DNA of 64,000 nucleotides from a bacterium (GTDB lineage Bacteria > Zhuqueibacterota > Zhuqueibacteria > Residuimicrobiales > Krinioviventaceae): positions 4,768,001 through 4,832,000 of the forward strand of contig OY843751.1 of assembly GCA_963693055.1 (NCBI GenBank). The letters are read 5' to 3'. The position numbers and the translations under genes are program-made. This document shows positions 17,097 through 50,827 of this stretch, piece after piece. The notes beneath the pieces are model-generated. The model searched no databases, was not told the DNA's origin, and worked only from the letters and a program-made list of their open reading frames with translations. Positions within the stretch are counted from its first letter, which is position 1. Every line of letters begins with the position of its first letter.

Positions 17097-17131
17097 GTCA
17101 CTGTTTTGAAAAAAAAACTAAATTCCTTATA

Positions 17132-23100: not shown

Positions 23101-23977
23101 AGTCACTTTTAATATTATGGTTGAGAACCGTTGTCCGATTATCAGTAGTTTTGAACCCGCTGATACAACCAGCTTTGATGTGAAACAAGACAGTAACCGG
23201 ATCATCTTTAAAGTTTCAGCAATGGACCCGGATTTTGACGTACTGACTTTTGAATGGAGAGTAAACGATGTTTACAACGGGGCAGATACAACATTGACCG
23301 TTCCATTCAGCAAAGATTTCTTCCCCAGTCCGAACAATACGGTCCAGGTTTTAATATCTGACGGATCTTGTCAAAAATCGATTACCTGGAAAGTGGTACT
23401 AACCGCTATCGAATTAAATACATTTGAGGCAATCTCTCAAAAAGGCGGCATAGAACTGTTCTGGGAAACTTCATCAGAAACACAGAATGCCGGTTTTTAT
23501 GTTATTCGCAGCACCATGGAACACGGTACCTATCAACGTATCAATAACGAGATCATTAGTCCATCATTTAATGGTGAATATAGTTTTGTGGATACAGATG
23601 CTAAAGCAGGTATCACCTATTATTACAAATTACAGGATATTGACATCTATGGTTCTTTGAACGAACACGGACCGGTTACGGCCAAAGCAGCACTTCCGGA
23701 TAAATTTGCACTGTCGCAAAACTATCCAAATCCGTTCAACCCAAGCACCACTATCAGCTTTGAGCTGCCTGAACCGGCTGACGTCAAAATTGTGATATTC
23801 AACACCAATGGTCAATTGGTAAAGACCCTGGTAGATTCTCGTCTTGAACCGGGCTATCATAACATTCTCTGGAATGCTAAAAATGATCAGGGAATCTCGT
23901 TACCATCCGGTATCTATTTTTACAAGATGCAGGCTAAAGATTTCACACTGGCCAAAAAACTTTTATTATTGAAATAA
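17132..23977 (+). CDS. Second giant secreted paralog with the same architecture (start probably 17171 or 17177)
   Basis: Same domain order; shared mature N-terminus PPTHT..LY; QHFGVG; ~11 Ig repeats; LSQNYPNPFNPSTT tail. Confidence 0.85.
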   Translation: MPCKRGINKMLAGMLMYKKTFRLFSVALVFLCASIATAQVPPTHTSVLYQDDLVSAGQKDIGYITNSNGSFQADGWKTTGPSSKLVIELNEFLPHEGTMQVKIKNLNPATQVNNDWSLISLWSRANGSWRDMNSTPGSYVLLKTEPDAQYISGGNVAWKLVETPFYGGDTGNPNAMNISNTTMQTWDATMEHTFKIIWNPQYLWIIIDGEMVKRKAYKDQIENFEYIFLGSDNEYGSMAGPTFTDLQILVPSSSFSFENVTKSADLASDMIFGEQGVSLVDLNNDGLDDIYLNYCNTADGIPNALYLNSNSQLFTEDASSAGLDNTNCSNSSTFADFDGDGDLDLFIAKVNSPNKLYINNGSGIFSDQSTSRGISSLNYSTVNAMAIDIENDGDLDIFAVSSTQNHELYVNQGNGTFALETRGTNNPTGAVMGAVAGDVNNDGFVDIFIAQRSAACGLLINDGTGNFSNEAASRNANQSIKANNPTMMDYDNDGDLDIFLAPSSTSTTPDPRVLVLKNNGNGVFTDISNTANINIEAYGLVSGDIDNDGYEDLYAVRSNRRDVVDDHSSRIYINNGDDTFTALTGTGAEAIFSDGRAGIMIDYDNDGLLDLYGVSKGNLYNGSSYDTIDFGRNQLLKNTTETPNNWLKVVVNDIAGNPDGMGAKIWVYEAGRNFSNDYLIGYRDVYAMQGYTSQGSMTQHFGVGSNTQVDVKIQMPGEEAKTINNVVVNRTVEFNPSLVVPHHINVSGHDQTGTAGNTLANPLQVYVYAEDSTPAPGITVQFDVTAGGGTLDGNTETQIITTTDENGLAQVTWKMGTTAGQENTVRVTSEYNGSALEGSPFDASITPVAGDPAKLVKSSGDVQTGYILQFLDNPIIAQVTDAFNNPVSGHDVIFTVSTGGGSVDQSGTTTFQAQTDQDGLAQVNWLLGETIGTQTLNATSTFDSNPLTNSPLSFSATGLAPQQKLQYQSGNYQTKLINSALDPFTVKVVDFTDAPIANEEIEFKVISGNGTFGEESSVNVLTNAQGIASATATLGSTAGDTIYVFHAISPGASGSPVIFKASATPGSAAKLAEVTNTNYQSGPVNRTLENDIAVLVTDASDNPVPGYTVTFTVSKGGGKVDGATYANVTSDENGKASAAFKLGTAVGENIAIASADALEGSPITFFADGETSTPARIDIVSGNNQSGNLGQQLAQPFVVVVRDSFFNAINNHTVQYSVTEGDGNIEGQTVANKQTNEIGRTSAYLTLGTTAYTNIVQVSAFQNDNPLINSPVTFVASTGPGDPKYLVYESGNNQIGRISAQLPAPFKVKVTDENGIPVKGHEVQFISYTTGAHFSGSNMMTAQTDADGFATATPTLGSNYSTYEFEAVAKFNNVSLGGSPLVFEAYGRKSTATQIENLSTGSLTGTAGLVLGDSLKIRVKDGNGNPVANHPVEFQVTSGSGSFLNDHHSSVSINSNSSGIASVGVTLRQTPGTVTITAISDNGLANGDLDGSPINYTITAVTGAPDPDNCTIQSTDNVLADGQTPSQITVTLKDAFENPVSGKTVMLESAGIEVTKNQPQTATNAGGQTSGSIVSENVGQVYVWAVVDDQIVKRDTITFVTGSPAIISTIGSGQFAVAGKTLNNTVGVWVQDEYNHPIPGVSTTFTVVDGGGSVTESQPVTTNSEGKALVHWQLGSAIGLQHLNAAVDGVVETYEITAIATAPTLANITKVAGDSAIGLVNQEYHFTAAVIDTNDNPIVNYNVSFELLLGTGEGQGNFTTATTVATNNEGKATVTFESGTLTGLHKIKATATDYGHVVFDFIVEEQRSITMEKLEGDGNTVRPNTDIDLSVKITNAFNQPVSDESIKFQVVEGLGVLKDIQPVATSDKGIAYSTWSVSTLAGTHKVKVTPVDAVGDSVNFTAIVVNAAPVLMDMPETVNINWGEIYELTITAEDPDEDNVRFGIRGLPLNAEFDSTGTQKFTWEPSAAQEGEHEVIFIAADPYGLSDSTKVTFNIMVENRCPIISSFEPADTTSFDVKQDSNRIIFKVSAMDPDFDVLTFEWRVNDVYNGADTTLTVPFSKDFFPSPNNTVQVLISDGSCQKSITWKVVLTAIELNTFEAISQKGGIELFWETSSETQNAGFYVIRSTMEHGTYQRINNEIISPSFNGEYSFVDTDAKAGITYYYKLQDIDIYGSLNEHGPVTAKAALPDKFALSQNYPNPFNPSTTISFELPEPADVKIVIFNTNGQLVKTLVDSRLEPGYHNILWNAKNDQGISLPSGIYFYKMQAKDFTLAKKLLLLK

Positions 23978-36840: not shown

Positions 36841-38277
36841 ATGAAGAAAAAAGCATTAACATCCCTATCGATCTTGCTGACAATTATCATTGTCATTACA
36901 ATCCCGGTAATCTGGTTGCTAAATCCATCAACAGATAAAAAAGATGCCTGGGCCAATGTACCGAAAAAATTACCACAAACCAATCATGCCGATCTTTTGA
37001 AAGGACCCTTTAAAGACGGGCCCTCTGTAACCCGGGCGTGTTTGGAGTGTCATCCTGATGCCGGCGATCAGGTTATCCACTCTGCTCATTTTACATGGGA
37101 AAGCCCGGCAATAAAACTACCCGGTAGAGATGAGCCGGTTGTTTTGGGCAAAAAGCACGCAATGAATAACTTTTGCATTGGCATTACTTCAAACTGGCCC
37201 CCTTGCACCGCCTGCCATACCGGTTACGGCTGGGAGGACGATTCTTTTGACTTTACCAATCAGGAACTCATCGATTGCCTGGTCTGTCACGACCATTCAG
37301 GCCAGTATGTAAAAAGCAAAGGCGGGTACCCGGCACCGGATGTAGATCTTGTTGCTGTAGCCAAAAGTGTGGGTCCCACAACCCGAGACAACTGTGGCGG
37401 TTGTCACTTTAGAGGTGGTGGTGGTAATGCAGTAAAACATGGTGATTTGGATGAAAGTCTCTACAATCCCAGCGAGAATATCGATATCCACATGGGAAAA
37501 CATAACTTTTTATGTACCGATTGTCACCAGACCGAAAACCATAATATTAGAGGCCGATCCATATCTGTAAGTGCTGACAATGAGAATCAGGTTTATTGTA
37601 CAGATTGCCATGACCAAAAGACGCACAAAGATGAACGCATTAATACACATACAGCTTCGGTTGCCTGCCAGACTTGTCACATTCCTCATGCCGCAGTCAA
37701 AGAAGCAACCAAAATGCATTGGGACTGGTCTGAAGCAGGTAAAGATTTACCAGAAAATCCTCATGAATATTTAAAGATCAAAGGTCGTTTTGTATATGAA
37801 AAAAACATTCAACCCGATTATTTCTGGTTTAATGGAAATGCCAAACATTACGTAATGGGAGACAAAATAGATCCCACTCAACCCACATTGATGAACGAAC
37901 CGGATGGCAGCATCAAAGATCCCAATGCCAAAATCTGGCCGTTTAAACTACATACCGCTAAACAAATTTATGACCCGGTTAACAATTATTTACTGGTCCC
38001 CAAAACTTTTGGTAAGGGCGGTTTCTGGACTGAATTTGACTGGCAAAAAGCCGCAGAACTGGGTTCCGAAGCAACAGGTCTTGATTACAGCGGCCAATTT
38101 GGATTTACCAATACGGTCATGTTCTGGCCCATAACCCATATGGTGGCATCAAAAGACAAGGCATTGCAATGTATTGATTGTCACGGAGAAAGTGAAAATA
38201 CAAGAATGAACTGGTCTGCGTTGGGTTACGATGGCGACCCCATGTTGACTGGTGGAAGAAAAAATAAAAATCTATAA
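36841..38277 (+). CDS. Octaheme c-type cytochrome, tetrathionate reductase (OTR) family
   Basis: Eight CxxCH motifs; GKKH.MNNFC, CHTGYGW, GGGGNAVKHGDLD, WDWSEAG, WPITHMV; N-terminal TM anchor. Confidence 0.9.
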   Translation: MKKKALTSLSILLTIIIVITIPVIWLLNPSTDKKDAWANVPKKLPQTNHADLLKGPFKDGPSVTRACLECHPDAGDQVIHSAHFTWESPAIKLPGRDEPVVLGKKHAMNNFCIGITSNWPPCTACHTGYGWEDDSFDFTNQELIDCLVCHDHSGQYVKSKGGYPAPDVDLVAVAKSVGPTTRDNCGGCHFRGGGGNAVKHGDLDESLYNPSENIDIHMGKHNFLCTDCHQTENHNIRGRSISVSADNENQVYCTDCHDQKTHKDERINTHTASVACQTCHIPHAAVKEATKMHWDWSEAGKDLPENPHEYLKIKGRFVYEKNIQPDYFWFNGNAKHYVMGDKIDPTQPTLMNEPDGSIKDPNAKIWPFKLHTAKQIYDPVNNYLLVPKTFGKGGFWTEFDWQKAAELGSEATGLDYSGQFGFTNTVMFWPITHMVASKDKALQCIDCHGESENTRMNWSALGYDGDPMLTGGRKNKNL

Positions 38278-38294
38278 ACTATAAAGGATTCGCA

Positions 38295-40928
38295 ATGCTA
38301 AGCAAACGCTTTATATTTTTCACAGTCTTATTCACACTACTGACAGGCCAGGTTTTTTCCGAATCCCTTCACCCGGATGTAAAGTTGCTTGACCAAAACG
38401 GGAACCCTGTAATTTCCAGTGATTTACCTGTATCAACCATAAAAACCTGTGGAACCTGTCACGATGCTGAATACATTGCATCAAACAGCTATCACAGTAC
38501 TGTTGGTTTTGATAAAAATGCTGACGATGAAACTATTGATCCCGGCTTCTTTAACAATTGGGACCCTGTCATCTACCATCGTATGATGAATGATGAACTC
38601 AAAAATGGTAACCTGGGGCTTGCAAACTGGGTCATGACCTATGGTAAAAGACACGTAGGTGGCGGCCCGGCTGAATTCAACCAGTCAATGAAAAAATTGA
38701 ACGCACCCAATGCTCAATCAAGCAACACTGAAAGTCACTGGCTCAATCCCGAAACCAAAACAATAGAACCCTGGAATTGGCAAAACTCGGGAATTGTTGA
38801 AATGAACTGTTTTCTATGCCATACTCCAAATCCAGACAACCAGGCAAGAATGGATGCGCTTGAACAAGGTCACTTTAAATGGGCAAACACGGCAACATTA
38901 ACAGGTATTGCGATTAAAAATGGTGACCATTATCGCTACAATACCAACAGTATAAATCCGGATGGCACGGTAAAACGATCTGTTTTTCAGGTTACCGATC
39001 CATCGAATGAAAATTGCGGTCTCTGTCATGGACTGGTTAAAGACGATGAATCTCACCCTGTTGTGCTTACCGAATGTACTCCAGAAAATTGGTCTACTAT
39101 GACTACCGGACAGATTTTCTCACCGCAACGGATATCTGACAGTGGTTTGAATCTTGAAAATAAATCAGAGCTGGCTTATGCCTGGGATGTGCATGCGGAA
39201 AGACTTGTAAATTGTGTGGATTGCCATTTTTCAATCAACAATCCCATCTATTATCAGGAATCTGCACTTACACGGCCCGCACACCTGAATTTTGATGCAC
39301 GCCGGATGGATATTGATGATTACCTGTTAAGACCCAGTCACGACTTTGCATTCGGACCCGGCAACCATAATCCTGAAAGCAATACTTTTAGCAACAATAT
39401 GAGAAGATGCGAGTCTTGCCATAATATTGAGGCAACACACGATTGGTTACCATACAAAGAAAGACATATGCAAACCATGACTTGTGAATCCTGCCACATC
39501 CCTCATATTCGTTCAACTGCCAAACAAACTGTTGACTGGACAATGATCCACCCCGATGGTACACCAAGAACCGAATGCAGAGGTACAGATGCATCGGCCC
39601 CTAACAGCAACACATTGTTAAAAGGATACCAGCCCGTACTTTTGGGACGCATTGAACCGGATGGAAGCTCACGTCTTGCCCCCTATAACCTGATCACCTC
39701 TTGGTTTTGGGTACAGGGTGAAAAAGAAGCGCCTGTATTGTTGAGCGACCTGAAAAAAACGCTGTTAAATGGCAATGATTTTGATCCTCAGGTTGTTAAG
39801 TACCTGGATGCGAATCAAAATGGGTCTCTTGAAGACAGTGAAATGGTGTTAAACTCGGCTGAAAAAATAGATTTTATCAAATCCCGACTTTCATCTATAG
39901 GCTTGATAAATGTTGCAATCAAAGGTGAGGTGAATCCTTACGGACTACACCACAACGTTACGCATGGTGACTGGACAACCCGTACATGTGAATCCTGTCA
40001 CAGTAACAAATCTAAAATTTCTCAGCCCATGGTTCTTGCAAGCAGCTTTCCCCCGGTTGTTCCGCAAATGATAAATCGTGGTTCAATAATCCCCAAAGGC
40101 AAAGTAATCACAAAAAATAAAGTGCTGGTCTTTAAACCAGCGCCGGACAGAAATGGATACTATATTTTGGGTCACGACAAAAGTCTGGTTGCGCAAATAA
40201 TTGGCGCCTTGATATTTATATCAGTTATTATAGGAATAACCATTCATGCAACTTTGCGTGTAATTGCAACGGCAAAACACAAACATGAAAAAGGTCCCTT
40301 TAAAAGTATTTACATGTACACGGTATATGAAAGATTCTGGCATTGGATGCAGGCAATAGCCATTATTGGTTTAATTTTTACTGGCTTGACTATCCATTCT
40401 CCATTGATATTCAAGTTTATGCCCTTCCATGTTGCGGTAATTATTCACAATGTACTGGGTTTTATTTTACTGGGTAATGCATTTTTAGCTGCTTTTTATC
40501 ATTTTTCAAGTGGTAAAATCAAAAACTATTTGCCCGAACCTAAAGGGTTTTTCAGTCAGGCTATAGATCAGACCCTGTTCTACATCAAGGGCATTTTCAA
40601 AGGTCAGCCTCACCCCTTTGAAAAAGATGTTGATAAAAAACTGAATCCGTTACAAAAGATAACCTATCTTATTATATTAAATGCATTGCTGCCAATTCAA
40701 ATCATTACCGGCATTCTGATATGGGGAGCACAAAGATGGCCGGCATTGGCAGAATCGTTGGGTGGCCTGCTAATATTGGTTCCTATACATTCACTTGTTG
40801 CATGGTTCTTTGCTGCTTTTCTCATGCTGCATATATATTTAACCACTACCGGTTACACAGCTACATCTGCTATTCAGGCGATGATAATCGGATGGGAAAA
40901 AGTTCATACAAATCATAATGGAGATTAA
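38295..40928 (+). CDS. Heptaheme cytochrome c fused to a C-terminal membrane cytochrome b
   Basis: Seven CxxCH motifs (CGTCH, CFLCH, CGLCH, CVDCH, three CESCH); C-terminal YERFWHW, IHN..G, KLNPLQKITY, IHS...LHIY. Confidence 0.85.
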   Translation: MLSKRFIFFTVLFTLLTGQVFSESLHPDVKLLDQNGNPVISSDLPVSTIKTCGTCHDAEYIASNSYHSTVGFDKNADDETIDPGFFNNWDPVIYHRMMNDELKNGNLGLANWVMTYGKRHVGGGPAEFNQSMKKLNAPNAQSSNTESHWLNPETKTIEPWNWQNSGIVEMNCFLCHTPNPDNQARMDALEQGHFKWANTATLTGIAIKNGDHYRYNTNSINPDGTVKRSVFQVTDPSNENCGLCHGLVKDDESHPVVLTECTPENWSTMTTGQIFSPQRISDSGLNLENKSELAYAWDVHAERLVNCVDCHFSINNPIYYQESALTRPAHLNFDARRMDIDDYLLRPSHDFAFGPGNHNPESNTFSNNMRRCESCHNIEATHDWLPYKERHMQTMTCESCHIPHIRSTAKQTVDWTMIHPDGTPRTECRGTDASAPNSNTLLKGYQPVLLGRIEPDGSSRLAPYNLITSWFWVQGEKEAPVLLSDLKKTLLNGNDFDPQVVKYLDANQNGSLEDSEMVLNSAEKIDFIKSRLSSIGLINVAIKGEVNPYGLHHNVTHGDWTTRTCESCHSNKSKISQPMVLASSFPPVVPQMINRGSIIPKGKVITKNKVLVFKPAPDRNGYYILGHDKSLVAQIIGALIFISVIIGITIHATLRVIATAKHKHEKGPFKSIYMYTVYERFWHWMQAIAIIGLIFTGLTIHSPLIFKFMPFHVAVIIHNVLGFILLGNAFLAAFYHFSSGKIKNYLPEPKGFFSQAIDQTLFYIKGIFKGQPHPFEKDVDKKLNPLQKITYLIILNALLPIQIITGILIWGAQRWPALAESLGGLLILVPIHSLVAWFFAAFLMLHIYLTTTGYTATSAIQAMIIGWEKVHTNHNGD

Positions 40929-40934
40929 TAATAA

Positions 40935-41465
40935 ATGAAAACCAACCAAATTGAAAACGGAAAACCGTATATGAATCCCTATCTTGCAGGCACCCTGCTT
41001 GGGATCGTACTCTTTTTAGCGTTTTTCATTACAGGGAACGGATTGGGTGCATCGGGTGGTATTAATAGAATCCTACTCTATCTGGAAGACGCGGTAGCTC
41101 CAGCTCATGTAGACCGTGTACCCTATCTTTTAAGCATGGCCGGTGGAGATAAAAACCCACTAGATCACTGGATCGTCTTTTTAACCATAGGCACCTTGCT
41201 GGGAGGTTTTATATCCGGTTTAATCCATAAACGGGTAAAGTTGAAAACAGCCAAAGGCCCCAATATCACCAACTGGCAGCGCTGGGTTTTAGCGTTTGCG
41301 GGAGGTATATTTATGGGGTATGGCGCCAGAATGGCCAGAGGTTGTACTTCGGGTCAGGCACTCTCCGGAGGAGCGGTCTTGTCCGCCGGAAGCTGGGCGT
41401 TCATGTTTGCGGTTTTTGCAGGCGGTTACGCGGCTGCATGGTTTGTTAGAAAAATCTGGAATTAA
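40935..41465 (+). CDS. YeeE/YedE thiosulfate/sulfur transporter family protein
   Basis: YMNPYLAG, GLGASG, YGARMARGCTSGQALSG. Confidence 0.88.
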   Translation: MKTNQIENGKPYMNPYLAGTLLGIVLFLAFFITGNGLGASGGINRILLYLEDAVAPAHVDRVPYLLSMAGGDKNPLDHWIVFLTIGTLLGGFISGLIHKRVKLKTAKGPNITNWQRWVLAFAGGIFMGYGARMARGCTSGQALSGGAVLSAGSWAFMFAVFAGGYAAAWFVRKIWN

Positions 41466-41483
41466 AAAAGGACGGATAATAAA

Positions 41484-42710
41484 ATGGCACCTTTCCCTAT
41501 AGATGCAATTCTTGGTAAATTTGGAGCTTATCTGATCTATCTGCTGATCGGAGTAGGATTTGGCTCTGTATTAGAAATGGCAGGTTTTGCCCACTCGCCC
41601 AAACTTGCCGCTCAATTTTATCTCAAAGATATGACGGTCTTAAAAGTCATGTTTACGGCTATTATCGTTGCAATGACACTCATATTCCTCTCATCAGGGT
41701 TAATGCTGCTCGACTTTGACAAGCTGTGGGTAAACCCCACCTACCTCTGGCCCGGCATTATAGGTGGTTTGATTATGGGTGTGGGTTTTATTATTGGTGG
41801 TTTTTGCCCGGGAACTTCATTGGTTGCGTTAGCAACATTAAGAGTAGATGGCTTCTTTTTTGTACTGGGTGCAACCACCGGAATCTTTATCTTTGGAGAA
41901 ACTGTTAGCAATTACACAGGCTTTTGGACATCTTCCTACCTGGGACGCATAATTCTGCCAGAAGTCTTTCATGTACATACAGGTGTAATAGTCTTGCTTG
42001 TTATACTCATGGCTCTTTTTATGTTTAAAGGTGGAGAGATGTTAGAGGCCGCCATTGGTAAGAAAAAGGTCTCTAAATCAAAGTGGAAAATTGCCGGTGC
42101 CTCGGCTTTGGTGATTTTGTCATTACTGGGTATAGTAATTGGACAACCATCTGTGCAGGACAAGTGGGAAATGGTCTCCAAAACTAAACAGGTGCTTTTG
42201 GATGATCGCCAGGTCCAGGTTCATCCCGGTGAGTTGCTTGACCTGATGTACGATGACAGCAAAAATCTGGTATTGCTTGATGTTCGGCCGGAAAAAGACT
42301 ATAATATATTCCACATAAAAAACGCAAAAATGGTTGAATTGGATGATATCCCTCAATACGCTTCAGAGCTGCTGCATGAACCGGCAAATACAGTTATTGT
42401 AGCCATTTGTAATAATGAAAAACTATCTACTACAGCATGGAAATGGTTAACCGCGCTTAATGTTCCCAATGTTTACATTCTTGAAGGTGGTATCAACAAC
42501 TGGCTAGACATTTTCGGTCACGAAGGTCATGAAAGCTGTTATACAGTTAAAGATAAAGACGATACTTCTTTGCGGCATATTTTCAATTCAGCACTAGGGT
42601 CACGTTACGATGCGGCAGAACCGGAACCGGAACATCAGGAATCAAAACTTTTATTTGAACCCAAAGTAAAAATCGCCACCCAGGTAAGACGTCAAGGTGG
42701 CTGTGGATAA
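41484..42710 (+). CDS. YeeE/YedE domain fused to rhodanese, with a C-terminal GGCG
   Basis: GFG.VLE.AGF, DMTVLKVMFTA, GGFCPGTS; LLDVR...Y...HI..A, AICNN, YILEGGINNW; ends RQGGCG. Confidence 0.85.
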   Translation: MAPFPIDAILGKFGAYLIYLLIGVGFGSVLEMAGFAHSPKLAAQFYLKDMTVLKVMFTAIIVAMTLIFLSSGLMLLDFDKLWVNPTYLWPGIIGGLIMGVGFIIGGFCPGTSLVALATLRVDGFFFVLGATTGIFIFGETVSNYTGFWTSSYLGRIILPEVFHVHTGVIVLLVILMALFMFKGGEMLEAAIGKKKVSKSKWKIAGASALVILSLLGIVIGQPSVQDKWEMVSKTKQVLLDDRQVQVHPGELLDLMYDDSKNLVLLDVRPEKDYNIFHIKNAKMVELDDIPQYASELLHEPANTVIVAICNNEKLSTTAWKWLTALNVPNVYILEGGINNWLDIFGHEGHESCYTVKDKDDTSLRHIFNSALGSRYDAAEPEPEHQESKLLFEPKVKIATQVRRQGGCG

Positions 42711-42740
42711 AAAAAAAGCCCTTTAAAAGGGCTTTTTTTT
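42709..42740. terminator. Bidirectional terminator
   Basis: A-run-GCCCTT-ta-AAAGGGC-T-run between convergent genes. Confidence 0.85.
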
Positions 42741-43332
42741 ATTTCAAAGGCTGTACAGGAATTCCCCTCCTGAACACTCTGATTTTTCCATTATCAAAAT
42801 TTAATTTTAGTGACAAAAGCAGCATTTGCGCCAGAGGATCTTTATCTGCATTATACGCATTCACCATAACACCAAAACGTACAGATTTCGATTGTCCCGA
42901 TTCTATCAGCAGATCAACATCTGCCTGGGTATCAAAATTTTGTTCAGTTAATGATTTTATTAACCGGGGATTTTGCTGAATTTCATTTATTGATGGTTTT
43001 ACCAGAAAAGCTTTGCTTGACAAATTTATATCCAGAATTTTTTGTCCCGCTAAAGGAATCAAAAATCCTGCGCCATCAGACATCTTTTCTATAGATTTTA
43101 ATGAAAAACTGGCCGGTCCCTGATTTGTGATGCTGGTTTCATATATGGCTAAAAATGCCCACGATTGGGTAGCCTCATCGTAAACCGGTGTCATCAAAGT
43201 ATTACGTTCTTCAAGTTCAATATCAGACAATGCTAATTGAAAAGCCTGGTTTGCCTTAAACAGCCCCATTACTGCTATTCCCAGGGCTATAATTGCAATG
43301 GCATATAAAGTAATCGTTTTCCACTTCATCAA
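42739..43332 (-). CDS. Hypothetical membrane-anchored protein
   Basis: 197-aa ORF with one N-terminal hydrophobic segment and a GGAG RBS; no family recognised. Confidence 0.6.
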   Translation of the reverse strand: MMKWKTITLYAIAIIALGIAVMGLFKANQAFQLALSDIELEERNTLMTPVYDEATQSWAFLAIYETSITNQGPASFSLKSIEKMSDGAGFLIPLAGQKILDINLSSKAFLVKPSINEIQQNPRLIKSLTEQNFDTQADVDLLIESGQSKSVRFGVMVNAYNADKDPLAQMLLLSLKLNFDNGKIRVFRRGIPVQPLK

Positions 43333-43382: not shown

Positions 43383-44210
43383 CTATTTTATTAATAATAT
43401 TTTATGAAATGCAAACATCTGCCCCAAATTGACGCGCACGTAATACACACCAGATGGAACAGAATTCCCGTTCATATCAATCCCAGACCATAAATATTCA
43501 TACGAACCCATTTCAAGCTTTCCAAAATCATTAAATGATATTTTATTACTCAAAATATCAAAAATTTCAAGATGGACATTTCCACTTTTGGTAATATCAA
43601 AATGTATCCGCGTTGAATTGTTAAAAGGATTCGGATAGTTCTTAACAACCAGATTCTGGTTAATCGGATATTCCGGTTCTTCAATTTTTGTATCAATATT
43701 CCGTACAACTGCACGGAGGAGAAAATCCAGGTCTTCTCTCAGCCACCAGCTTCAGCAGTCGGTATCGTATGAATGCAGGCTTATGGGTTCCTGATCATCA
43801 ACACCAATTGCAAAAAAGTTGTTTGGATTTTGTGACAATACAAAAAAGAAATCATCATCAACATTTAGGTCCAAAGCACCGAGATCATATTCGTTCCACC
43901 CTGCATGCCCACCAGATATTACAAACGGCTCAACAAGATCATTTCCATCCCAGGGTTTACCATCCAAATCAGCAGGTAATATTGACAACTTGAATGCCGT
44001 AGTCTCATTTACTTTGGGCATATAATATTTAATTTTCATCAATTTTGCAGGGTATTGAGAGGGAGAGAATTTTGTAACTACATAGATACCATTTTGTCCC
44101 ATTATAAAAGTATCGTGCGCAATTCCATTATCATAATACAACTCTTCATCAGCAAAAGTAACCGCAAAAAGGGTCAAAACCCATAGACACAAAATTTTAG
44201 TTATTTTCAT
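43383..44210 (-). CDS. Secreted FlgD-Ig/Por-tail protein with an in-frame TGA at codon 153 (Cys-TGA); candidate selenoprotein, 275 aa
   Basis: The ORF track stops at TGA 43752-43754. The same frame continues SWWLREDLDFLLRAVVRNIDTKIEEPEYPINQNLVVKNYPNPFNNSTRIHF...WSGIDMNGNSVPSGVYYVRV...HKILLIK to TAG at 43383-43385. Confidence 0.75.
43707..43751 (-). promoter_or_regulatory. Candidate bacterial SECIS hairpin immediately 3' of the UGA
   Basis: mRNA: UGA AGCUG-G-UGG-CU-GAGAGAA-[GACCUGGA]-UUUUCUC-CU-CCG-UG-CAGUU. The upper stem starts 11 nt after UGA and the loop begins with G (manual folding). Confidence 0.5.
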
Positions 44211-44235: not shown

Positions 44236-44274
44236 TAAACACCAAAGGCCCCATAAAGGGGCCTTTGGTGTTTA
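44236..44274 (-). terminator. 17-bp hairpin after the PorV-family gene
   Basis: TAAACACCAAAGGCCCC-ataaa-GGGGCCTTTGGTGTTTA. Confidence 0.8.
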
Positions 44275-44295: not shown

Positions 44296-45315
44296 TTATT
44301 TCATATAGATGCTCCAGGAGATTCTATGTACAGAGCCAAAAAGTTCACCAAAGTCACCGTAGGAGTAATCAAATTTTACACCATAGTTACCCAGGGGTTT
44401 ATTGACACCAACACCAAAAGTCAATCCTTCTTCATCATAGTTAAATTTGTAACCACCGCGCAGGAACAGCATATTACTCATACCATATTCAGCACCAAGG
44501 TGAATACGTTCAGAGTAATCTCTGGGGTGAATTGCATCTACTGCAACTGTCAGTTTATGCATATCACTATCTGCGAACAAGGTCATTACATCCATTGCCA
44601 TACCAATATTGAACATCAAAGGCAATTCAAAGCGTTCAAACACATAACGACCCTGGCGGGAAAAGTTGCGGATTGACATAGCAACGCGCAAATCTTTCCA
44701 ACCTGTGTAATACAGGGTACCAAAATCAAATGCATTTACAGTTTGTTCATTTTGTACAACGGTTTCACCATAGACTTCATGCAAGATCAAGCTTTCATAC
44801 AAGTCCTGTTTAACCATTTTAATCTGGGCACCGATAGAGAATTGGTTACTGATACGACGTCCATAAGACAATCCTACAGCATATTCACCAACTTCAAAAT
44901 CACCAAGGTCTTCATAACCCTGATTTCTCAGTATAGGATCAGCTCCATCATACGGACGTGTTTCTGTCATTGTACCATAGTCCATATAGATCAAGCTAAC
45001 ACCAAAAGTACCCCAGTTTTTAAAACCGTAAGCAATACCACCGGCATAATGTTTAATGTCGGCAATCCAATTGGTTTGGTTCATTGCAACTTCAAAGCCA
45101 TCAACAAAAGCGAGACCCGCCAGATTCGAAAACATAGATGTAGCATCATCAGTTACGGCTGCACTGGCACTGCCCATTGCAGAAGCACGACCACCTACAT
45201 CAATTTTTAAAAACGGCATACCCGTTTGACCTAATTTATCAATAGCTTGTGACGCAGGACTGAGTCCCAATATTAATAGCGCCGTCACCAGCAAATAAAA
45301 AACAGTTTTTTTCAT
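44296..45315 (-). CDS. PorV/PorQ family outer-membrane beta-barrel
   Basis: KLGQTGMPFLKIDVGGRASAMGSA...D.TSMFSNLAGLA, HPRDYSERIHLGAEY, LRGGYKFNYDE, DYSY...G.VHRIS. Confidence 0.85.
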   Translation of the reverse strand: MKKTVFYLLVTALLILGLSPASQAIDKLGQTGMPFLKIDVGGRASAMGSASAAVTDDATSMFSNLAGLAFVDGFEVAMNQTNWIADIKHYAGGIAYGFKNWGTFGVSLIYMDYGTMTETRPYDGADPILRNQGYEDLGDFEVGEYAVGLSYGRRISNQFSIGAQIKMVKQDLYESLILHEVYGETVVQNEQTVNAFDFGTLYYTGWKDLRVAMSIRNFSRQGRYVFERFELPLMFNIGMAMDVMTLFADSDMHKLTVAVDAIHPRDYSERIHLGAEYGMSNMLFLRGGYKFNYDEEGLTFGVGVNKPLGNYGVKFDYSYGDFGELFGSVHRISWSIYMK

Positions 45316-45351: not shown

Positions 45352-47409
45352 TTATTTAACCACTACAAATTTGCCAATTGCAGTTTCACCCGTGGGGCTG
45401 CCTTGAGGACCATCTAATTCTTCAACAACAAACAGATAGATACCGCTCACAATTCTCATTGAAGAGAAAGTGTCCTGACGGGTCCATTCTTCGTCACCTG
45501 TTCCTTCGTTATGATACAGAGTCTGTACCAGGTCACCTGTCATTGTGTAGATATGGATATTACAATAAGCAGGTGTATTGAGGAATTTAATTTGATCTTC
45601 TTCATATTTGTAGCGGGAAAGGGCATTAAAAGGATTAGGTACAACAACTACATTGTCTTTCCAGTTTGCATCCGGTGAACGTGTAGGTGCAACAGCTTCA
45701 TCAACTCGATTATCTCCGGATTTCAACTGACCGGAACGGTTCAGCAGCATACTGCTTTCGGTTCCATCATTGGTGTACGCGGTTACATAATACCAATAGT
45801 TTTGTCCACGGATCACATCCGTATCAATATAACTATGAGTTGACGCACCAACATCTGCAAGTAAAACAAATGTTGTATCAGTTGGTATAGCCAATTCCGC
45901 TGGGCGGTAATAGTTACGATAGATTTTGAATCCGGCAAGTCCCGGGAAGCCATCAGCTTCTGTTCCCCAATCAATTTCAATTTGATCAGGAACTGAGGTC
46001 AATGTTAATGAGGGAGATGGTGGTGTAGCAGGAACCATCAACTCACCAGTACCCTTGAGAACGTTACTGTTTTCCCAGATTCTTTTCAGCATTCCGGCCT
46101 TTTTAAAAACAGAATCTTTACCGGTATCAATGATCATGTCTTTTTGTACCTGGCTCAGAAAACTACCTTGAACTCCTAGATCCATTACATCATAAGGCAT
46201 TTCAACATTAAGCTGACTAGAGTATCCGGCTTTATAAGCACGACCGGCATCAATAGCCAGACGATGGTTTATAGAACCACCAATGTAAGCAACAACAATA
46301 CGCACATCTTCACCTGGAGCCATCTGGTAAGGACCAAAATGGAAAGAACCGGGTTTTGCTTGTTCTTCTACAGGATTACTCACATGTGCTGCCCAACTGT
46401 CAATCAAGCTGCGATACATACCGCTTGCATCTGTCTGCAGACTGGGGTTAGCTGTATTCCAGGGGCCAGACATGAATTCGTAAATTTCATCATGGGTTGC
46501 TTCACTCAATGAAGGAAGTAACTCACGCTGTGACCAACCGGCTTTATGTGGTTGTGCAGGATCGTCAGTATCATCAGTAGTGCTTTTATCCGCATGAAGT
46601 ACCTGCATACCCATATATTGTGGTTTTTCAAAGTTACCCCAGATCAGATCAGGGTTAGCTTTGTCATCTTCAGGAATTTCAGGTTCATCTGCTTCCCACA
46701 TATAATAGAGACGCAGCGAATCCTGGCCACTTGCGTAACCAGCGCCATAATAATCTGACCACAAGTTACCAGGATAATGATCACCTGTCATCATTTCGGT
46801 TACAATACTAAAATAAACATCATTTTTAGCTTCGTTAGATGCGTTTTCAAAAATCCATTCATAAACAACAAAGTCGTCATATTCTTGATTGGCACACGCG
46901 TAAACCCAACGTTCTACATCAATACCGGTCCAGGTATTCCACTTGCCATAGACCATACCGTCTGCAGGAATATTTTCATCAACCGGGTCGGTTTTGTACT
47001 GAGCGTCAGTCCAGTCACGGCCATCAATCATTCTGATGGGGGGTGCGTATTTGAAAACACGTTTAAAAGCACCACTAACGGGCACAATAACGTTTTCAAT
47101 TTCGGTAAATTTACTTTGTATACCCTGGGCAATTTTATGTTCCCAAGGTACACCATTACCGTCCGTCCAACTCATTTTAACACCAACATTGATACCATTA
47201 ACAGATGAAACTTCTCTGGCATCACTGTCAAGATTTTCATTCCAGGTTTGGGGGTATTGCATTGACATTGCACTGATCGTCTCTCCCGGTGTCACCTGGA
47301 TATCACCGAATCGCAACTGTCTGGTAGACGACTGACCCAATAGTGTTGAATTTATGAGCAACAGCAGAACAAGAACAAATAATCCGCCGTACTTGAAAAG
47401 TTTTTTCAT
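45352..47409 (-). CDS. Secreted protein with an FN3-like domain and a variant secretion tail
   Basis: Signal peptide; PATPPSPSL, GFKIYR, YWYYVTAY; tail VVVVPNPF...IKFLN.P..C.I.IYT.TGDLV...SGIYLFVVE...GKFVVVK. Confidence 0.75.
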   Translation of the reverse strand: MKKLFKYGGLFVLVLLLLINSTLLGQSSTRQLRFGDIQVTPGETISAMSMQYPQTWNENLDSDAREVSSVNGINVGVKMSWTDGNGVPWEHKIAQGIQSKFTEIENVIVPVSGAFKRVFKYAPPIRMIDGRDWTDAQYKTDPVDENIPADGMVYGKWNTWTGIDVERWVYACANQEYDDFVVYEWIFENASNEAKNDVYFSIVTEMMTGDHYPGNLWSDYYGAGYASGQDSLRLYYMWEADEPEIPEDDKANPDLIWGNFEKPQYMGMQVLHADKSTTDDTDDPAQPHKAGWSQRELLPSLSEATHDEIYEFMSGPWNTANPSLQTDASGMYRSLIDSWAAHVSNPVEEQAKPGSFHFGPYQMAPGEDVRIVVAYIGGSINHRLAIDAGRAYKAGYSSQLNVEMPYDVMDLGVQGSFLSQVQKDMIIDTGKDSVFKKAGMLKRIWENSNVLKGTGELMVPATPPSPSLTLTSVPDQIEIDWGTEADGFPGLAGFKIYRNYYRPAELAIPTDTTFVLLADVGASTHSYIDTDVIRGQNYWYYVTAYTNDGTESSMLLNRSGQLKSGDNRVDEAVAPTRSPDANWKDNVVVVPNPFNALSRYKYEEDQIKFLNTPAYCNIHIYTMTGDLVQTLYHNEGTGDEEWTRQDTFSSMRIVSGIYLFVVEELDGPQGSPTGETAIGKFVVVK

Positions 47410-47473: not shown

Positions 47474-50400
47474 TCAATAGAAATTAATTTTGATACCGAA
47501 AAAGATATCACGTTTTTCCAGGAATGTCCATGGAGTAAACGACGGCATTACGATATAATCTTTGCCGTTGCTGTCTGTTGGGTAATCTCCGGGACGATCG
47601 CCACCTTCAATGTCCAATGAATTCATATAAGCTCTGAATTCACCATTCCACCATTTGTGATCGTTCCATGCCCAGTTTCCATTAACACCTGTGAGAACTC
47701 TGTTATCACCATAAGAATAATCATCGGGATAGGTCATATTCTTGTTATTAAATACGTTAAAAACATCTACGTAAAATACGGTTTCCATGCCCCATTTATG
47801 GAACAGACGTTTGGTGAAACGCATATCTGTTCTTTGGTAGGGACGCCAGCGGATATTGTCTTCTACATATGGAATACCTTTGGGATTCCAGGTGAATACT
47901 TCACCCGCACGCCAATAGTACAAGAAATTCAGGTTCATGTCAGCAAAAACCGGGTAACCTGCAAGCCTGTAACCAAAATCAGCTGGTGTATGGAAATCTA
48001 CATTAACTTTCCAAACCGGGCGAGCAACAGGTTGTGTAATATCAGTATTCCATAATTGATCACCACTATTGGGATCTTCACGGTAATACTCGGTACCGTA
48101 ACGACCGCGGCTTGAGATCATGTATTCATAACTGGTAAAACCGGTTACAAATGTTCCACGACGCAATTCAGCCATCAACTCGACACCACGAATATCGCGG
48201 TACTGGTTGTTTTCCGGGAAACGTACATCCGAACCTTCCATAGGATAGTAACGGATTTCGTTATATTCGTCAGACACGTCTTTATAATAACCGGTAGCGG
48301 TCAACTGGAACATGTCCATTAAATTATGAGCATAGCCCACTTCGTACATGATGGTTTTGGGAGGAACTAAACTGGGGTTACCCAGGTTTGAAATTCTCCA
48401 GCCATCAGTTGTACGTTGGCGATAATAGTACAAATCATACGCACTGGGCCATTTGTAAAAGTGGCCATAGTTAAAAAAGATTTTTGCGTCGTTTGAAATT
48501 GGATGAGAGATACCAACACGCGGGCTTATACGCGCCTGCGTAATACCTTCCCAATTCAACATATCCAGACTGTCAGACTTGCCTGCCTGCAGAAATCTGG
48601 TATAGGGAGATGCGTTGGGATCATTAGGATCAGTATTATTGATCATTTCACCGCGTTTTTGTACGTCCATACGCAGACCCAGGTTTGCAATCATACCCTG
48701 GAATTCAAGTTTATCTTGAACAAACAAGGCACCTGACCAGGGTTTTGCTTTGGCAAAGTACCAGCTACCACCGTTAACGGAGGGATCGATTTCGCCATAT
48801 TCACCATGAATTTTATCATGTTGTAATTCAAAACCGGCTTTAATCTGGTTAAAACGGTTAACCTGACTGGTAACAGCGGCTTTTAATACATATTTACGGA
48901 ATACAGAATTGTTTTCACGCAGGTTACAAGATTCCATACGGTATTCACCAGTCACATCACGCCAGTTCACAGGACCATAGCCCCATGGACCTTCATCGTA
49001 CCAGTAATCACCAATTTTAACACGTGCGTAATTCTGCCAGTTTTCCCAATCATAATCACCATTGTCAATATGTTCCTGGATTTCATCAGCAGTACCTAAA
49101 CGGCCATACTGTAAATGGGTTGCGTTCCATTCATTACCCTGGATTTTAATGGTGTTACGATGATACATATCATGACCTTCTTCAGTCAGCAGATGGCTGA
49201 ATGTAACTTCATAAAATGTTGAAGGAGATAATACGTGCGTAAACTGGAAGCCCATTGAAACACGTTCCTGAACTGCGGTAACGTTACAATAGGGGTACCA
49301 CATTTTGTTTGCGGCAGACATACTGTTGGGAACATCACTTTCAAAACCAGAGCTATTGCTGGAGAAAGCATTGTTGGTAATTTCAATACCAATACCGCCA
49401 CCCTGGCTACCATTTGTACCACTCTGTTTTCCATATAAAAAGTTGAGGTTCAACTTCATAGATTCATTTAAATTTGTGGTTAATTTAAGGTTCGTCAGGC
49501 GATCACGATAATGATCTTGAGGAAAAACACGTGCGTAATATGTTTTTTCTTCTCTATGAGAAGCAAAGAATTTAACACCATTTAAAAATGGAATTGGGCC
49601 GCCAAAAGTAAAGGACCCGACAAAATCACCTTCATCACCATATTCGTACACGTCATCTTCATCGGGATCAATGCCGGTAACATCGGCATTTACCTTACCT
49701 TGTTCTGCAAGGCTCAACAACAATTCTAAATTATCTTTGGATCTGTGGCGCCACAAGTACAGTGCCAGATTTTCATAAGGTTCACCATAGTGGGGATCAC
49801 CAGGTTGCAGGGTACCATTGGTTCCCAAAACCCATTTGGATGAATCCCACCAGTTAGACAATTCAGCACCGCTTGCGTCAACGGGAATACCATTTGCGCT
49901 TACTTCAACACCTGAATATTTGAACCAGCCGGGGAAAAACTGACTTGCTGTACCCACTTCCCCCATGCCACCTTCACGGTAATATCCGGTCCACGCACCG
50001 TCTTTGGCGTAAAGAAACGGGCGTACCAAAGGCGAATCTTTACCATAGATCATGGGACCAAAACCCTTTAAAGCAGCTGGGCTGTATTTAAAATCAATAC
50101 TTCCGGTGTAACGGTCGCCACCTTCTTTGGTAACAACATTGATCAATCCTGAACGAACATTACCATATTCAGCATTGAAACCACCGGTAATAACCTGAAT
50201 TTCCTGCACAGCGTCCATATTAATCTTCATATAAGGACGATTGCGGATTTCATCAGTCATTGCCATACCATCGGTGATCATAGCACCATTGGTATAATCC
50301 TGACCGCGGAAACGCGGGTGAGATGCATTCGCACCAAAACCGGAAATACCAACCTGCGCATGCATTACATTTGCAAGGTCTTTGTATGCAGCATTTTCAA

Positions 50401-50827
50401 GTTGTTCGGGGGAAATAATTTGTTGGGTGCTGGAAACATCGAGGGGAACAATTGCGCGTTCTGCAACTACTGTAACTTCCTGAGAAGCTTCCAGAACTTT
50501 TTCTTCGAGTTTAAAATCTGCGACCGTTGTGCGGTCAACGTTTACACCTACTCCTGTAAGTTTAAGAGGTGTGTAACCAATCATTGTAGCGGTTAATGCA
50601 TATTGTCCTGGACGGATATTAATAATAAAATAATAACCATCAAGGTCTGTTGCAGCACCCATCTGGGTACCTTCAATCACAACATTAACGCCAGGGAGTG
50701 GCTCCCCTGTTTTTGCGTCTGTTACTCTACCTGATATTTTACCGGTTGTTGCCGAAAAACCCGTACCGGCAATTAACAGGCCTAGTATAAATACACAGGC
50801 GAGTTTAAATATTACACTTCTCTGCAT
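47474..50827 (-). CDS. TonB-dependent receptor with an N-terminal carboxypeptidase-regulatory-like domain
   Basis: TTGKISGRVTDAKTGEPLPG.NV, EIQVITGGFNAEYG...SGLINVVTKEG, FVQDKLE, SPRVGISHPI, FFNYGHFY, YEVG, aromatic C-terminus. Confidence 0.9.
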   Translation of the reverse strand: MQRSVIFKLACVFILGLLIAGTGFSATTGKISGRVTDAKTGEPLPGVNVVIEGTQMGAATDLDGYYFIINIRPGQYALTATMIGYTPLKLTGVGVNVDRTTVADFKLEEKVLEASQEVTVVAERAIVPLDVSSTQQIISPEQLENAAYKDLANVMHAQVGISGFGANASHPRFRGQDYTNGAMITDGMAMTDEIRNRPYMKINMDAVQEIQVITGGFNAEYGNVRSGLINVVTKEGGDRYTGSIDFKYSPAALKGFGPMIYGKDSPLVRPFLYAKDGAWTGYYREGGMGEVGTASQFFPGWFKYSGVEVSANGIPVDASGAELSNWWDSSKWVLGTNGTLQPGDPHYGEPYENLALYLWRHRSKDNLELLLSLAEQGKVNADVTGIDPDEDDVYEYGDEGDFVGSFTFGGPIPFLNGVKFFASHREEKTYYARVFPQDHYRDRLTNLKLTTNLNESMKLNLNFLYGKQSGTNGSQGGGIGIEITNNAFSSNSSGFESDVPNSMSAANKMWYPYCNVTAVQERVSMGFQFTHVLSPSTFYEVTFSHLLTEEGHDMYHRNTIKIQGNEWNATHLQYGRLGTADEIQEHIDNGDYDWENWQNYARVKIGDYWYDEGPWGYGPVNWRDVTGEYRMESCNLRENNSVFRKYVLKAAVTSQVNRFNQIKAGFELQHDKIHGEYGEIDPSVNGGSWYFAKAKPWSGALFVQDKLEFQGMIANLGLRMDVQKRGEMINNTDPNDPNASPYTRFLQAGKSDSLDMLNWEGITQARISPRVGISHPISNDAKIFFNYGHFYKWPSAYDLYYYRQRTTDGWRISNLGNPSLVPPKTIMYEVGYAHNLMDMFQLTATGYYKDVSDEYNEIRYYPMEGSDVRFPENNQYRDIRGVELMAELRRGTFVTGFTSYEYMISSRGRYGTEYYREDPNSGDQLWNTDITQPVARPVWKVNVDFHTPADFGYRLAGYPVFADMNLNFLYYWRAGEVFTWNPKGIPYVEDNIRWRPYQRTDMRFTKRLFHKWGMETVFYVDVFNVFNNKNMTYPDDYSYGDNRVLTGVNGNWAWNDHKWWNGEFRAYMNSLDIEGGDRPGDYPTDSNGKDYIVMPSFTPWTFLEKRDIFFGIKINFY

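Follow-up and report, generated by a model that had tools for sequence, protein, structure and literature searches.

In mammalian thioredoxin reductase, the C-terminal sequence Gly-Cys-Sec-Gly carries a vicinal Cys-Sec pair that is able to form an eight-membered selenenyl-sulfide. The closest bacterial systems are the CU selenoproteins. The CU/CC families described by Haft and Gwadz (10.1101/2022.07.06.499078) include extracytoplasmic ones, and Table 1 of PMC13188914 lists among them SaoL (NF040728), SaoB (NF040727), SaoC (NF040734), HgcA (NF040863), KCU-star (NF033934), and MbdU (NF045648). In these families the UGA aligns with Cys, CU alleles stand beside CC alleles, and database entries are truncated at the UGA. 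The bacterial SECIS (bSECIS) consensus of the Escherichia coli fdhF type, as given in the same source, requires a G in the first two loop positions and a spacing of 16-37 nt (PMC13188914). In the KSB1 lineage, selABD have been noted in a passage that does not name the selenoproteins (PMC9012183).

Here we analyse a gene in a 64,000-nt stretch of DNA (the window) that shares all three of these features with the CU selenoproteins and, with SaoB and SaoC, an extracytoplasmic location, which here is predicted. It differs from them in that it represents a new family without homology to theirs, has a different fold and a T9SS-type tail, can dispense with the first Cys, and is linked to a TonB receptor and a PorV-family gene. 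The initial annotation knew of no characterised family with this architecture, and we found none among the 119 entries of PMC13188914 Table 1, through which the families of Haft and Tolstoy 2025 were also compared, in NCBIfam 20.0, or in Pfam. NCBIfam release 20.0, searched at E<=1, gave tail-related matches only, for three members, and none to the catalogued CU families. T9SS, FlgD, sorting domain, and KSB1 do not occur in the main texts of deep-Sep (PMC12013277) and BSepDB (PMC13326102), and the available parts of their supplements hold nothing relevant on these terms. A full-text literature search returned no description of a selenoprotein T9SS cargo, of KSB1 selenocysteine, or of a two-hairpin SECIS for SelB.

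We propose that the gene encodes one protein of 275 residues, in which the UGA very likely specifies selenocysteine and which is predicted to be exported. On balance, we favour a role at the cell surface as a redox accessory to the neighbouring TonB-dependent uptake cassette. The features on which this proposal draws are collected in Table 1.

Table 1. Positions of the selenoprotein gene, its parts and its neighbours in the window, and of candidate redoxin loci elsewhere (L numbers)
Feature	Position	Strand	Basis or remark
Whole gene, 275 aa including the very likely Sec153	43383..44210	(-)	ORF and homologue comparison
Cys152 (TGC) and very likely Sec153 (TGA)	43752..43757	(-)	predicted beta-hairpin turn, strands 127-130 / 135-138
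Hairpin 1 (hairpin of the initial annotation)	43719..43740; conserved register 43738-43719	(-)	folding and alignment
Hairpin 2, loop AGUU, best candidate SelB-binding element	43700..43717	(-)	folding and alignment
Predicted signal peptide (basic N-end, hydrophobic core, TFA/DEE cleavage)	44151..44210	(-)	read from sequence
Beta-sandwich domain, predicted fold like Cwp84 lectin-like domain	43695..44150	(-)	structure model
T9SS type A-like C-terminal sorting domain (NYPNPFN...KILLIK)	43386..43640	(-)	PF18962, TIGR04183 just over cut-off
TonB-dependent receptor, co-occurring clade, Cys514 and Cys634	47474..50827	(-)	profile match and receptor alignment
685-aa exported-type protein, no known family, cassette gene 2	45352..47409	(-)	profile search
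PorV/PorQ family outer-membrane barrel, cassette gene 3	44296..45315	(-)	NF033709, 203 bits (cut-off 90)
17-pair inverted repeat with T-rich tail, between PorV-family gene and selenoprotein gene	44236..44274	(-)	terminator-like; single copy in genome
LVIVD/Ig/redoxin candidate locus	L107:1822-4023	(+)	
LVIVD/Ig/redoxin candidate locus	L109:6035-7456 and on	(-)	
LVIVD/Ig/redoxin candidate locus	L110:8319-9752 and on	(+)	

An in-frame UGA within a conserved coding sequence

The frame 44210-43383 (-) contains a single TGA (43754-43752), placed right after the TGC codon of Cys152. As the initial annotation had described, a 152-aa open reading frame ends in Cys-TGA and the same frame stays open beyond it, for 122 codons up to a TAG. 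Its second half has no usable start, because the first in-frame ATG, GTG, or TTG falls 67 codons past the TGA, inside the tail. The secretion tail noted past the TGA is likewise intact (PF18962, 28.3 bits, cut-off 27; TIGR04183, 23.5 bits, cut-off 23). Genome-wide, 4 of 1415 TGA-closed frames of at least 150 codons stay open for at least 120 further codons whose first 60 include no start codon, and in one of these four, the gene studied here, the TGA follows a Cys codon. TGA closes 605 of the 2970 frames of at least 300 codons in the source genome (G000). Within the window, its use as an ordinary stop had been claimed for pntAB, the TonB-dependent receptor, and mvaS; this is correct for the receptor, mvaS, and the small pntA subunit, but TAA closes the large pntA subunit and pntB. 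Two contigs from what is likely the source sample cover the stretch and show 0 differences from it, but do not count as independent support.

The genome-wide TGA scan missed SelD itself and therefore does not amount to a census of the selenoproteome. A HesB-like candidate selenoprotein at G000:C1:5135530 (-), which we take to belong to the HesB-like family, reads LGFG-TGA-GGP and has an ordinary GUA-loop hairpin at +22. Two other in-frame TGAs, at G000:C1:3240300 (+) and 1719311 (+), have coding-like flanks with no Cys motif and no good hairpin, and they probably mark broken genes.

A profile search of 167 genomes of the phylum gave matches in 37 genomes; 30 loci were inspected in addition to those of the first homologue search, and the remaining weak matches have no internal TGA. 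The stand-alone form, composed of leader, domain, and tail (about 275-290 aa), was found at 13 loci in 12 of the 167 genomes, and widening the profile in a second search brought this subfamily no further members. The initial annotation had asked whether the homologous column holds TGA or Cys, and this is what the 13 loci hold: eight have TGA (G000, G001, G009, G034, G036, G054, G063, and G123, from five families), five have Cys, and no other residue occurs. The Cys alleles are those of G011, G044, G049, and G076 and a paralogue in G000 (G000:C1:2356259-2357080 (-), L111), a genome that holds both a Sec and a Cys-Cys copy. Pairwise domain identity among the TGA members is 0.30-0.93, and the coding sequence is conserved on both sides of the in-frame UGA. 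Pattern scans of genomes and metagenome contigs gave 2 and 3 loci, of which L046, L047, and L050 duplicate G011/G049; because these scans required Cys-Cys and so returned Cys alleles only, they are uninformative on the frequency of TGA. The conserved alternation of TGA and Cys at one column in five families indicates that the stop-like codon very likely encodes selenocysteine.

The residue next to the UGA is less constant than the CU pair of the initial annotation implied. The Sec itself is invariant, but Cys precedes it in six of the eight TGA alleles, whereas G123 has Ala and G063 has Thr (CYCTU) at that position. Of the 83 cluster representatives, 14 stop exactly ahead of the column, nine of them with DC, three with DG, one with GA, and one with ST; four of the 14 are TGA genes already in the set, and the other 10 are known from their protein ends only. 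The resolving Cys is missing from 2/8 TGA alleles and 5/14 truncated representatives. Because some alleles do without the vicinal Cys (AU, CxCxU, and the DG-ended representatives), the family is defined by Sec and not by the CU pair. Extra cysteines are also found at the site, in the CYCTU of G063 (L106:8257-9117) and the DCDCC of L048 (L048:3117).

The same column bears on the alternatives to Sec, namely a nonsense mutation or pseudogene (GGA for Gly turned into TGA), a code change in which TGA stands for Trp or Gly, or an error of assembly. Gly at this position, which the initial annotation had named among the outcomes that would speak against Sec, is the commonest residue in distant, Cys-less domains (68 of 202 domain-bearing proteins, followed by gaps, Thr, Ser, and Ala) but never occurs in the close subfamily. 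Like this prevalence of Gly, the atypical SECIS geometry described below is compatible with a non-Sec reading. Against it, TGA stands at the same column in eight genomes from five families with their tails intact, the five sister loci have Cys and not Trp or Gly, the RNA structure is kept with TGA only, and TGA is a normal stop in the genome. Assembly error, nonsense mutation, and genome-wide TGA recoding were ruled out on the homologue column, the use of TGA as a stop, and the agreement of the contigs, and we regard any reading other than Sec as highly improbable.

The domain without Cys occurs in longer multidomain proteins and in distant relatives, with named members including Bathyarchaeia and Anaerolineae. 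In a quick-search tree, built without the motif columns and with four truncated duplicates omitted, one side (SH-aLRT 93) holds the Sec, truncated, and Cys-Cys rows plus one long-branch Cys-less row, and Sec and Cys rows are interspersed. Because the distant domains are Cys-less and the Sec and Cys rows intermingle, we infer that Sec/Cys arose at a turn within a common extracellular module and that Sec and Cys have since replaced each other more than once.

Selenocysteine machinery and RNA structure behind the UGA

The initial annotation had called for a search for the sel genes, and G000 indeed carries tRNA-Sec, selA, selB, and selD, the last with its own in-frame TGA. selA is present in 130 of the 167 genomes, including all eight TGA genomes and the Cys genomes, and because of this wide distribution discriminates little. 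Of the other 11 family genomes, 10 have tRNA-Sec and selB over the cut-off; G009 (73% complete) gave no hits for either. A search for selD in 41 genomes at E<=1e-50 gave no match in G034 (98% complete) or G009 (73%). The sequence behind the UGA of SelD is strongly conserved at synonymous sites (L004:1531-1590 and 28 others: L059, L070-L099). However, SelD does not settle the SECIS type of the lineage, because a tandem fold and a long-hairpin fold are both compatible with its 29 distinct sequences, two of which break the distal hairpin.

For the selenoprotein gene itself, the initial annotation had folded a hairpin with a G-initial loop and assigned it fdhF-type geometry. The hairpin (hairpin 1; stem from +12, loop GACCUGGA) is the minimum free energy (MFE) fold of this allele, but taken alone it is not unusual (z -0.6, against z -4.5 for hairpin 2), and the G at the start of its loop is not conserved. 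The geometry turned out not to be of the simple fdhF type, because covariation and the GU loop belong to the second hairpin, 41-44 nt past the UGA. This hairpin 2 has a 7-bp stem (-10.2 kcal/mol) and the loop AGUU (GGUC in G054), with G at loop position 2 followed by U. The bSECIS rule, that is, both the loop G and the 16-37 nt spacing in the same hairpin, does not hold across the alleles; it applies solely to the MFE register of hairpin 1 in this allele, and in most alleles the loop of hairpin 1 has no leading G. The element thus resembles a bSECIS in being formed by coding-region hairpins right after the UGA and in the 4-nt loop of hairpin 2, but differs in its two tandem hairpins, in the distance of the G-U loop, and in the lack of a conserved leading G in the hairpin that stands at the usual distance. 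Rfam gave no match over the hairpins.

Two abutting tandem hairpins follow every TGA allele and are decayed in the Cys alleles. The two-hairpin structure pairs 95% of 120 cells, and hairpin 2 pairs 100%; none of 500 shuffles reached the pairing or covariation score and slid controls were 46-57% paired, in a test biased in favour of the structure, which was derived from the same sequences. Hairpin 2 shows C-G, G-C, U-A, and U-G at one pair of third-codon, synonymous positions. Its pairs are complete (7/7) in 8/8 TGA alleles, and 2-5 of 7 remain in eight Cys rows (one a duplicate). Compared with uniform synonymous recoding, hairpin 2 is stable at p 0-0.038 in TGA alleles and p 0.16-1.0 in Cys alleles, and hairpin 1 at p 0.026-0.14. 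L048, which encodes CGWWVWEDVDLLLRAVV with Cys and hence nearly the same peptide, has lost both hairpins; it scores 22 bits versus 65-83.

An alternative long hairpin with hairpin 1 on top is possible (89% paired) and dominates in free G123, but it is occluded when the first 12 nt are kept open, as in the ribosome. The pair probabilities of hairpin 2 are 0.76-1.0 in seven of the eight alleles, whether free or with the first 12 nt open. Three neighbouring redoxin genes have an AGUUG or AGGUU loop, of the same A-G-(G)-U-U type as in hairpin 2, on a hairpin 16 nt past their TGA. Read-through with Sec is thus supported by three lines of sequence evidence: the conservation of TGA or Cys, the Sec machinery, and an RNA structure specific to TGA. 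We are close to certain that SelB.GTP.Sec-tRNA would bind these hairpins, most likely through the A-G-U-U loop of hairpin 2, and insert Sec. Folding of hairpin 1 would bring the loop of hairpin 2 closer to the UGA.

Domain fold and predicted export

A similar hydrophobic leader opens every full-length relative. The domain was modelled with Cys in place of Sec (pLDDT 95.3, pTM 0.90), and the model matches the lectin-like domain of Clostridioides difficile Cwp84 (PDB 4ci7) with Z 15.9 and rmsd 2.4 Å over 144 aligned residues (Foldseek E 2.3e-4). The two share the predicted beta-sandwich and an extracellular location, in our case predicted; the new family differs in its 12% identity, in having no protease domain, and in bearing Sec/Cys on a hairpin. 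A PDB sequence search gave 0 hits, the domain had no match in Pfam or NCBIfam, and a plasmid search gave tail matches only. In the ESM Atlas, the Cys paralogue matched unnamed clusters best (0.90), with DUF7451 (0.87) as a lead only.

According to the model, two strands of the sandwich lie past the UGA, and because these strands and the tail follow the UGA, a terminated product lacks part of the sandwich together with the tail. We therefore consider it very probable that selenium supply would gate the folded, exported protein, with termination at the UGA dropping the last two strands and the tail.

The tail of the paralogue scores 44 bits. SprA and PorU were found over the cut-off in the genome, and a PorV/PorQ-family barrel adjoins the gene. 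The protein thereby resembles the type A cargo of the Bacteroidota T9SS, which has a signal peptide and a C-terminal sorting domain. In contrast to that system, the motor-ring genes GldM and GldN were not matched: their models, which lacked a valid positive control, had no match in the genome. The route may therefore, on present evidence, differ from a canonical T9SS. Export as such is predicted from the SprA, PorU, and PorV-family genes. The signal peptide would probably lead the protein to the periplasm and the tail to the SprA translocon and PorV, with PorU cleaving or anchoring it, a route in which we have good confidence. Two giant proteins encoded in tandem (2261 and 2272 aa; window 10311-23977 (+)) also carry a sorting tail of this kind.

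Genomic neighbours and possible function

All eight TGA genes are located behind a cassette for a TonB receptor, a 685-aa (CTD) protein, and a PorV-family protein. The cassette lies ahead in G000, G001, G034, G036, G063, and G123 and across a contig break in G009; in G054, according to our own reading of the sequence, a TonB-like gene stands between the cassette and the TGA gene. The Cys alleles of G076 and L049 also follow the cassette. G000 contains about ten such cassettes, and only one receptor clade goes with the family. This clade (E<=1e-20) occurs in 12 of the 167 genomes, 10 of them shared with the 12 family genomes and three of these unlinked (G011, G044, and G049); the hypergeometric probability of 1e-12 ignores kinship and cassette transfer. 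The two family genomes without the receptor clade carry the second cassette gene. A receptor Cys pair is present in 12 of 13 aligned receptors versus 0 of 12 other G000 paralogues. The inverted repeat ahead of the selenoprotein gene may attenuate or stabilise the transcript.

Behind the gene, window 42739-43332 (-) encodes a 197-aa protein with an N-terminal membrane anchor, which is single-copy and has no Pfam or NCBIfam family; in G034, a homologue lies behind a second receptor, one of related type. An operon that converges on the cassette (window 36841-42710 (+)) encodes a multiheme cytochrome c, a cytochrome c/b fusion, YeeE/YedE, and a YeeE-rhodanese, ends in RRQGGCG, and is syntenic in G001. 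It looks like an operon of sulfur/thiosulfate metabolism.

The TGA genes mostly neighbour genes of sugar utilisation (sulfatase, GH28, arabinofuranosidase, DHDPS-family aldolase, LacI). A FecCD-type ABC transporter and MetE are encoded after the AU allele of G123 (L105:9202-14732), which suggests a cobalamin-related operon. The sugar-utilisation neighbours, the lectin/CBM-like fold, and the use of the Cys-less domain as a common accessory module of exported proteins would all suit a surface glycan-binding subunit of a polysaccharide-uptake locus, in which Sec/Cys, instead of turning over, joins the protein covalently or structurally to a partner, itself, or a substrate. However, fold alone does not show function, and Sec is costly and usually the catalytic nucleophile. 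The authors of the Cwp84 structure, moreover, consider carbohydrate binding by that domain unproven (PMC4089489). We judge such a binding subunit improbable.

The initial annotation had inferred a part in extracellular redox chemistry or soft-metal binding, and the genomic context points to one TonB-dependent importer. Three Cys alleles adjoin a gene for LVIVD repeats, Ig, an AhpC/TSA redoxin with the active site W-TGA-P-x-C, and a sorting tail, and this protein is a candidate second exported selenoprotein. All seven of the strongest phylum hits of this UPxC redoxin carry TGA, and five of the seven lie in family genomes; it was not found in G000 or G001. Together with the receptor Cys pair, the single-Sec alleles, and the usual role of Sec as catalytic nucleophile, these neighbours underlie a redox reading that we rate at even chances. 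Carried by an exposed hairpin on the lectin-like scaffold, the selenolate might cycle with the neighbouring Cys through a vicinal selenenyl-sulfide and reduce or protect thiols or disulfides of the importer, for which the conserved Cys pair is a candidate, or of its cargo, and the exported redoxin would re-reduce it where present; we see this cycle as just as likely to be right as wrong. The likeness to thioredoxin reductase is confined to the vicinal pair, which here sits on an internal hairpin and not on a C-terminal arm, in an unrelated fold with no flavin domain.

Two observations sit less well with an importer accessory. G066 (97% complete) and G122 (85%) lack a family gene although their receptors carry the Cys pair, and G000 and G001 have no UPxC redoxin. 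Furthermore, two Cys alleles lie in ars operons, in the order ArsR-ArsP-gene in G000 and ArsP-gene-LMWPc(ArsC-like)-efflux in G011, which better fits metal(loid) binding. The main rival is accordingly a Sec/Cys site that traps a soft metal(loid), such as As(III), Sb(III), Hg(II), or Cu(I), and scavenges or presents the ion at the surface. Both ars-linked copies are CC alleles, and G063 (CxCxU) and L048 (DCDCC) have extra thiols; CU/CC are also proposed metal ligands in SaoB, SaoC, SaoL, and HgcA (10.1101/2022.07.06.499078; PMC13188914). Yet none of the eight Sec alleles lies in an ars operon, their neighbours being sugar-utilisation genes instead, and single-Sec alleles (AU, GU) could not chelate alone. 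We consider a metal trap rather unlikely, and stay with the surface redox accessory as the preferred reading. Its most specific form is a dedicated redox partner of one TonB importer, acting on the extracellular Cys pair of the receptor, with selenium-gated export and a new tandem-hairpin SECIS class whose SelB loop lies more than 40 nt from the UGA. We hold this form to be rather unlikely.

The family is real and uncatalogued, and it very likely contains Sec. Both its fold and its location would be new among bacterial selenoproteins, its SECIS atypical, and its partner system specific; its function is an inference. The bacterial selenoproteome would gain a jelly-roll fold of lectin-like type and a site outside the outer membrane that is reached with a T9SS-type tail, neither of which appears among the 119 families of Table 1 in the 2026 catalogue (PMC13188914). 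Sec members sit in databases as hypothetical proteins of ~150 aa, truncated and without the secretion tail, and consensus predictors with a 37-nt limit would miss this SECIS variant. For the uncultured phylum, in which the Sec machinery is widespread, the family would provide a first concrete use of that machinery, and it would tie selenium chemistry to a specific nutrient importer.
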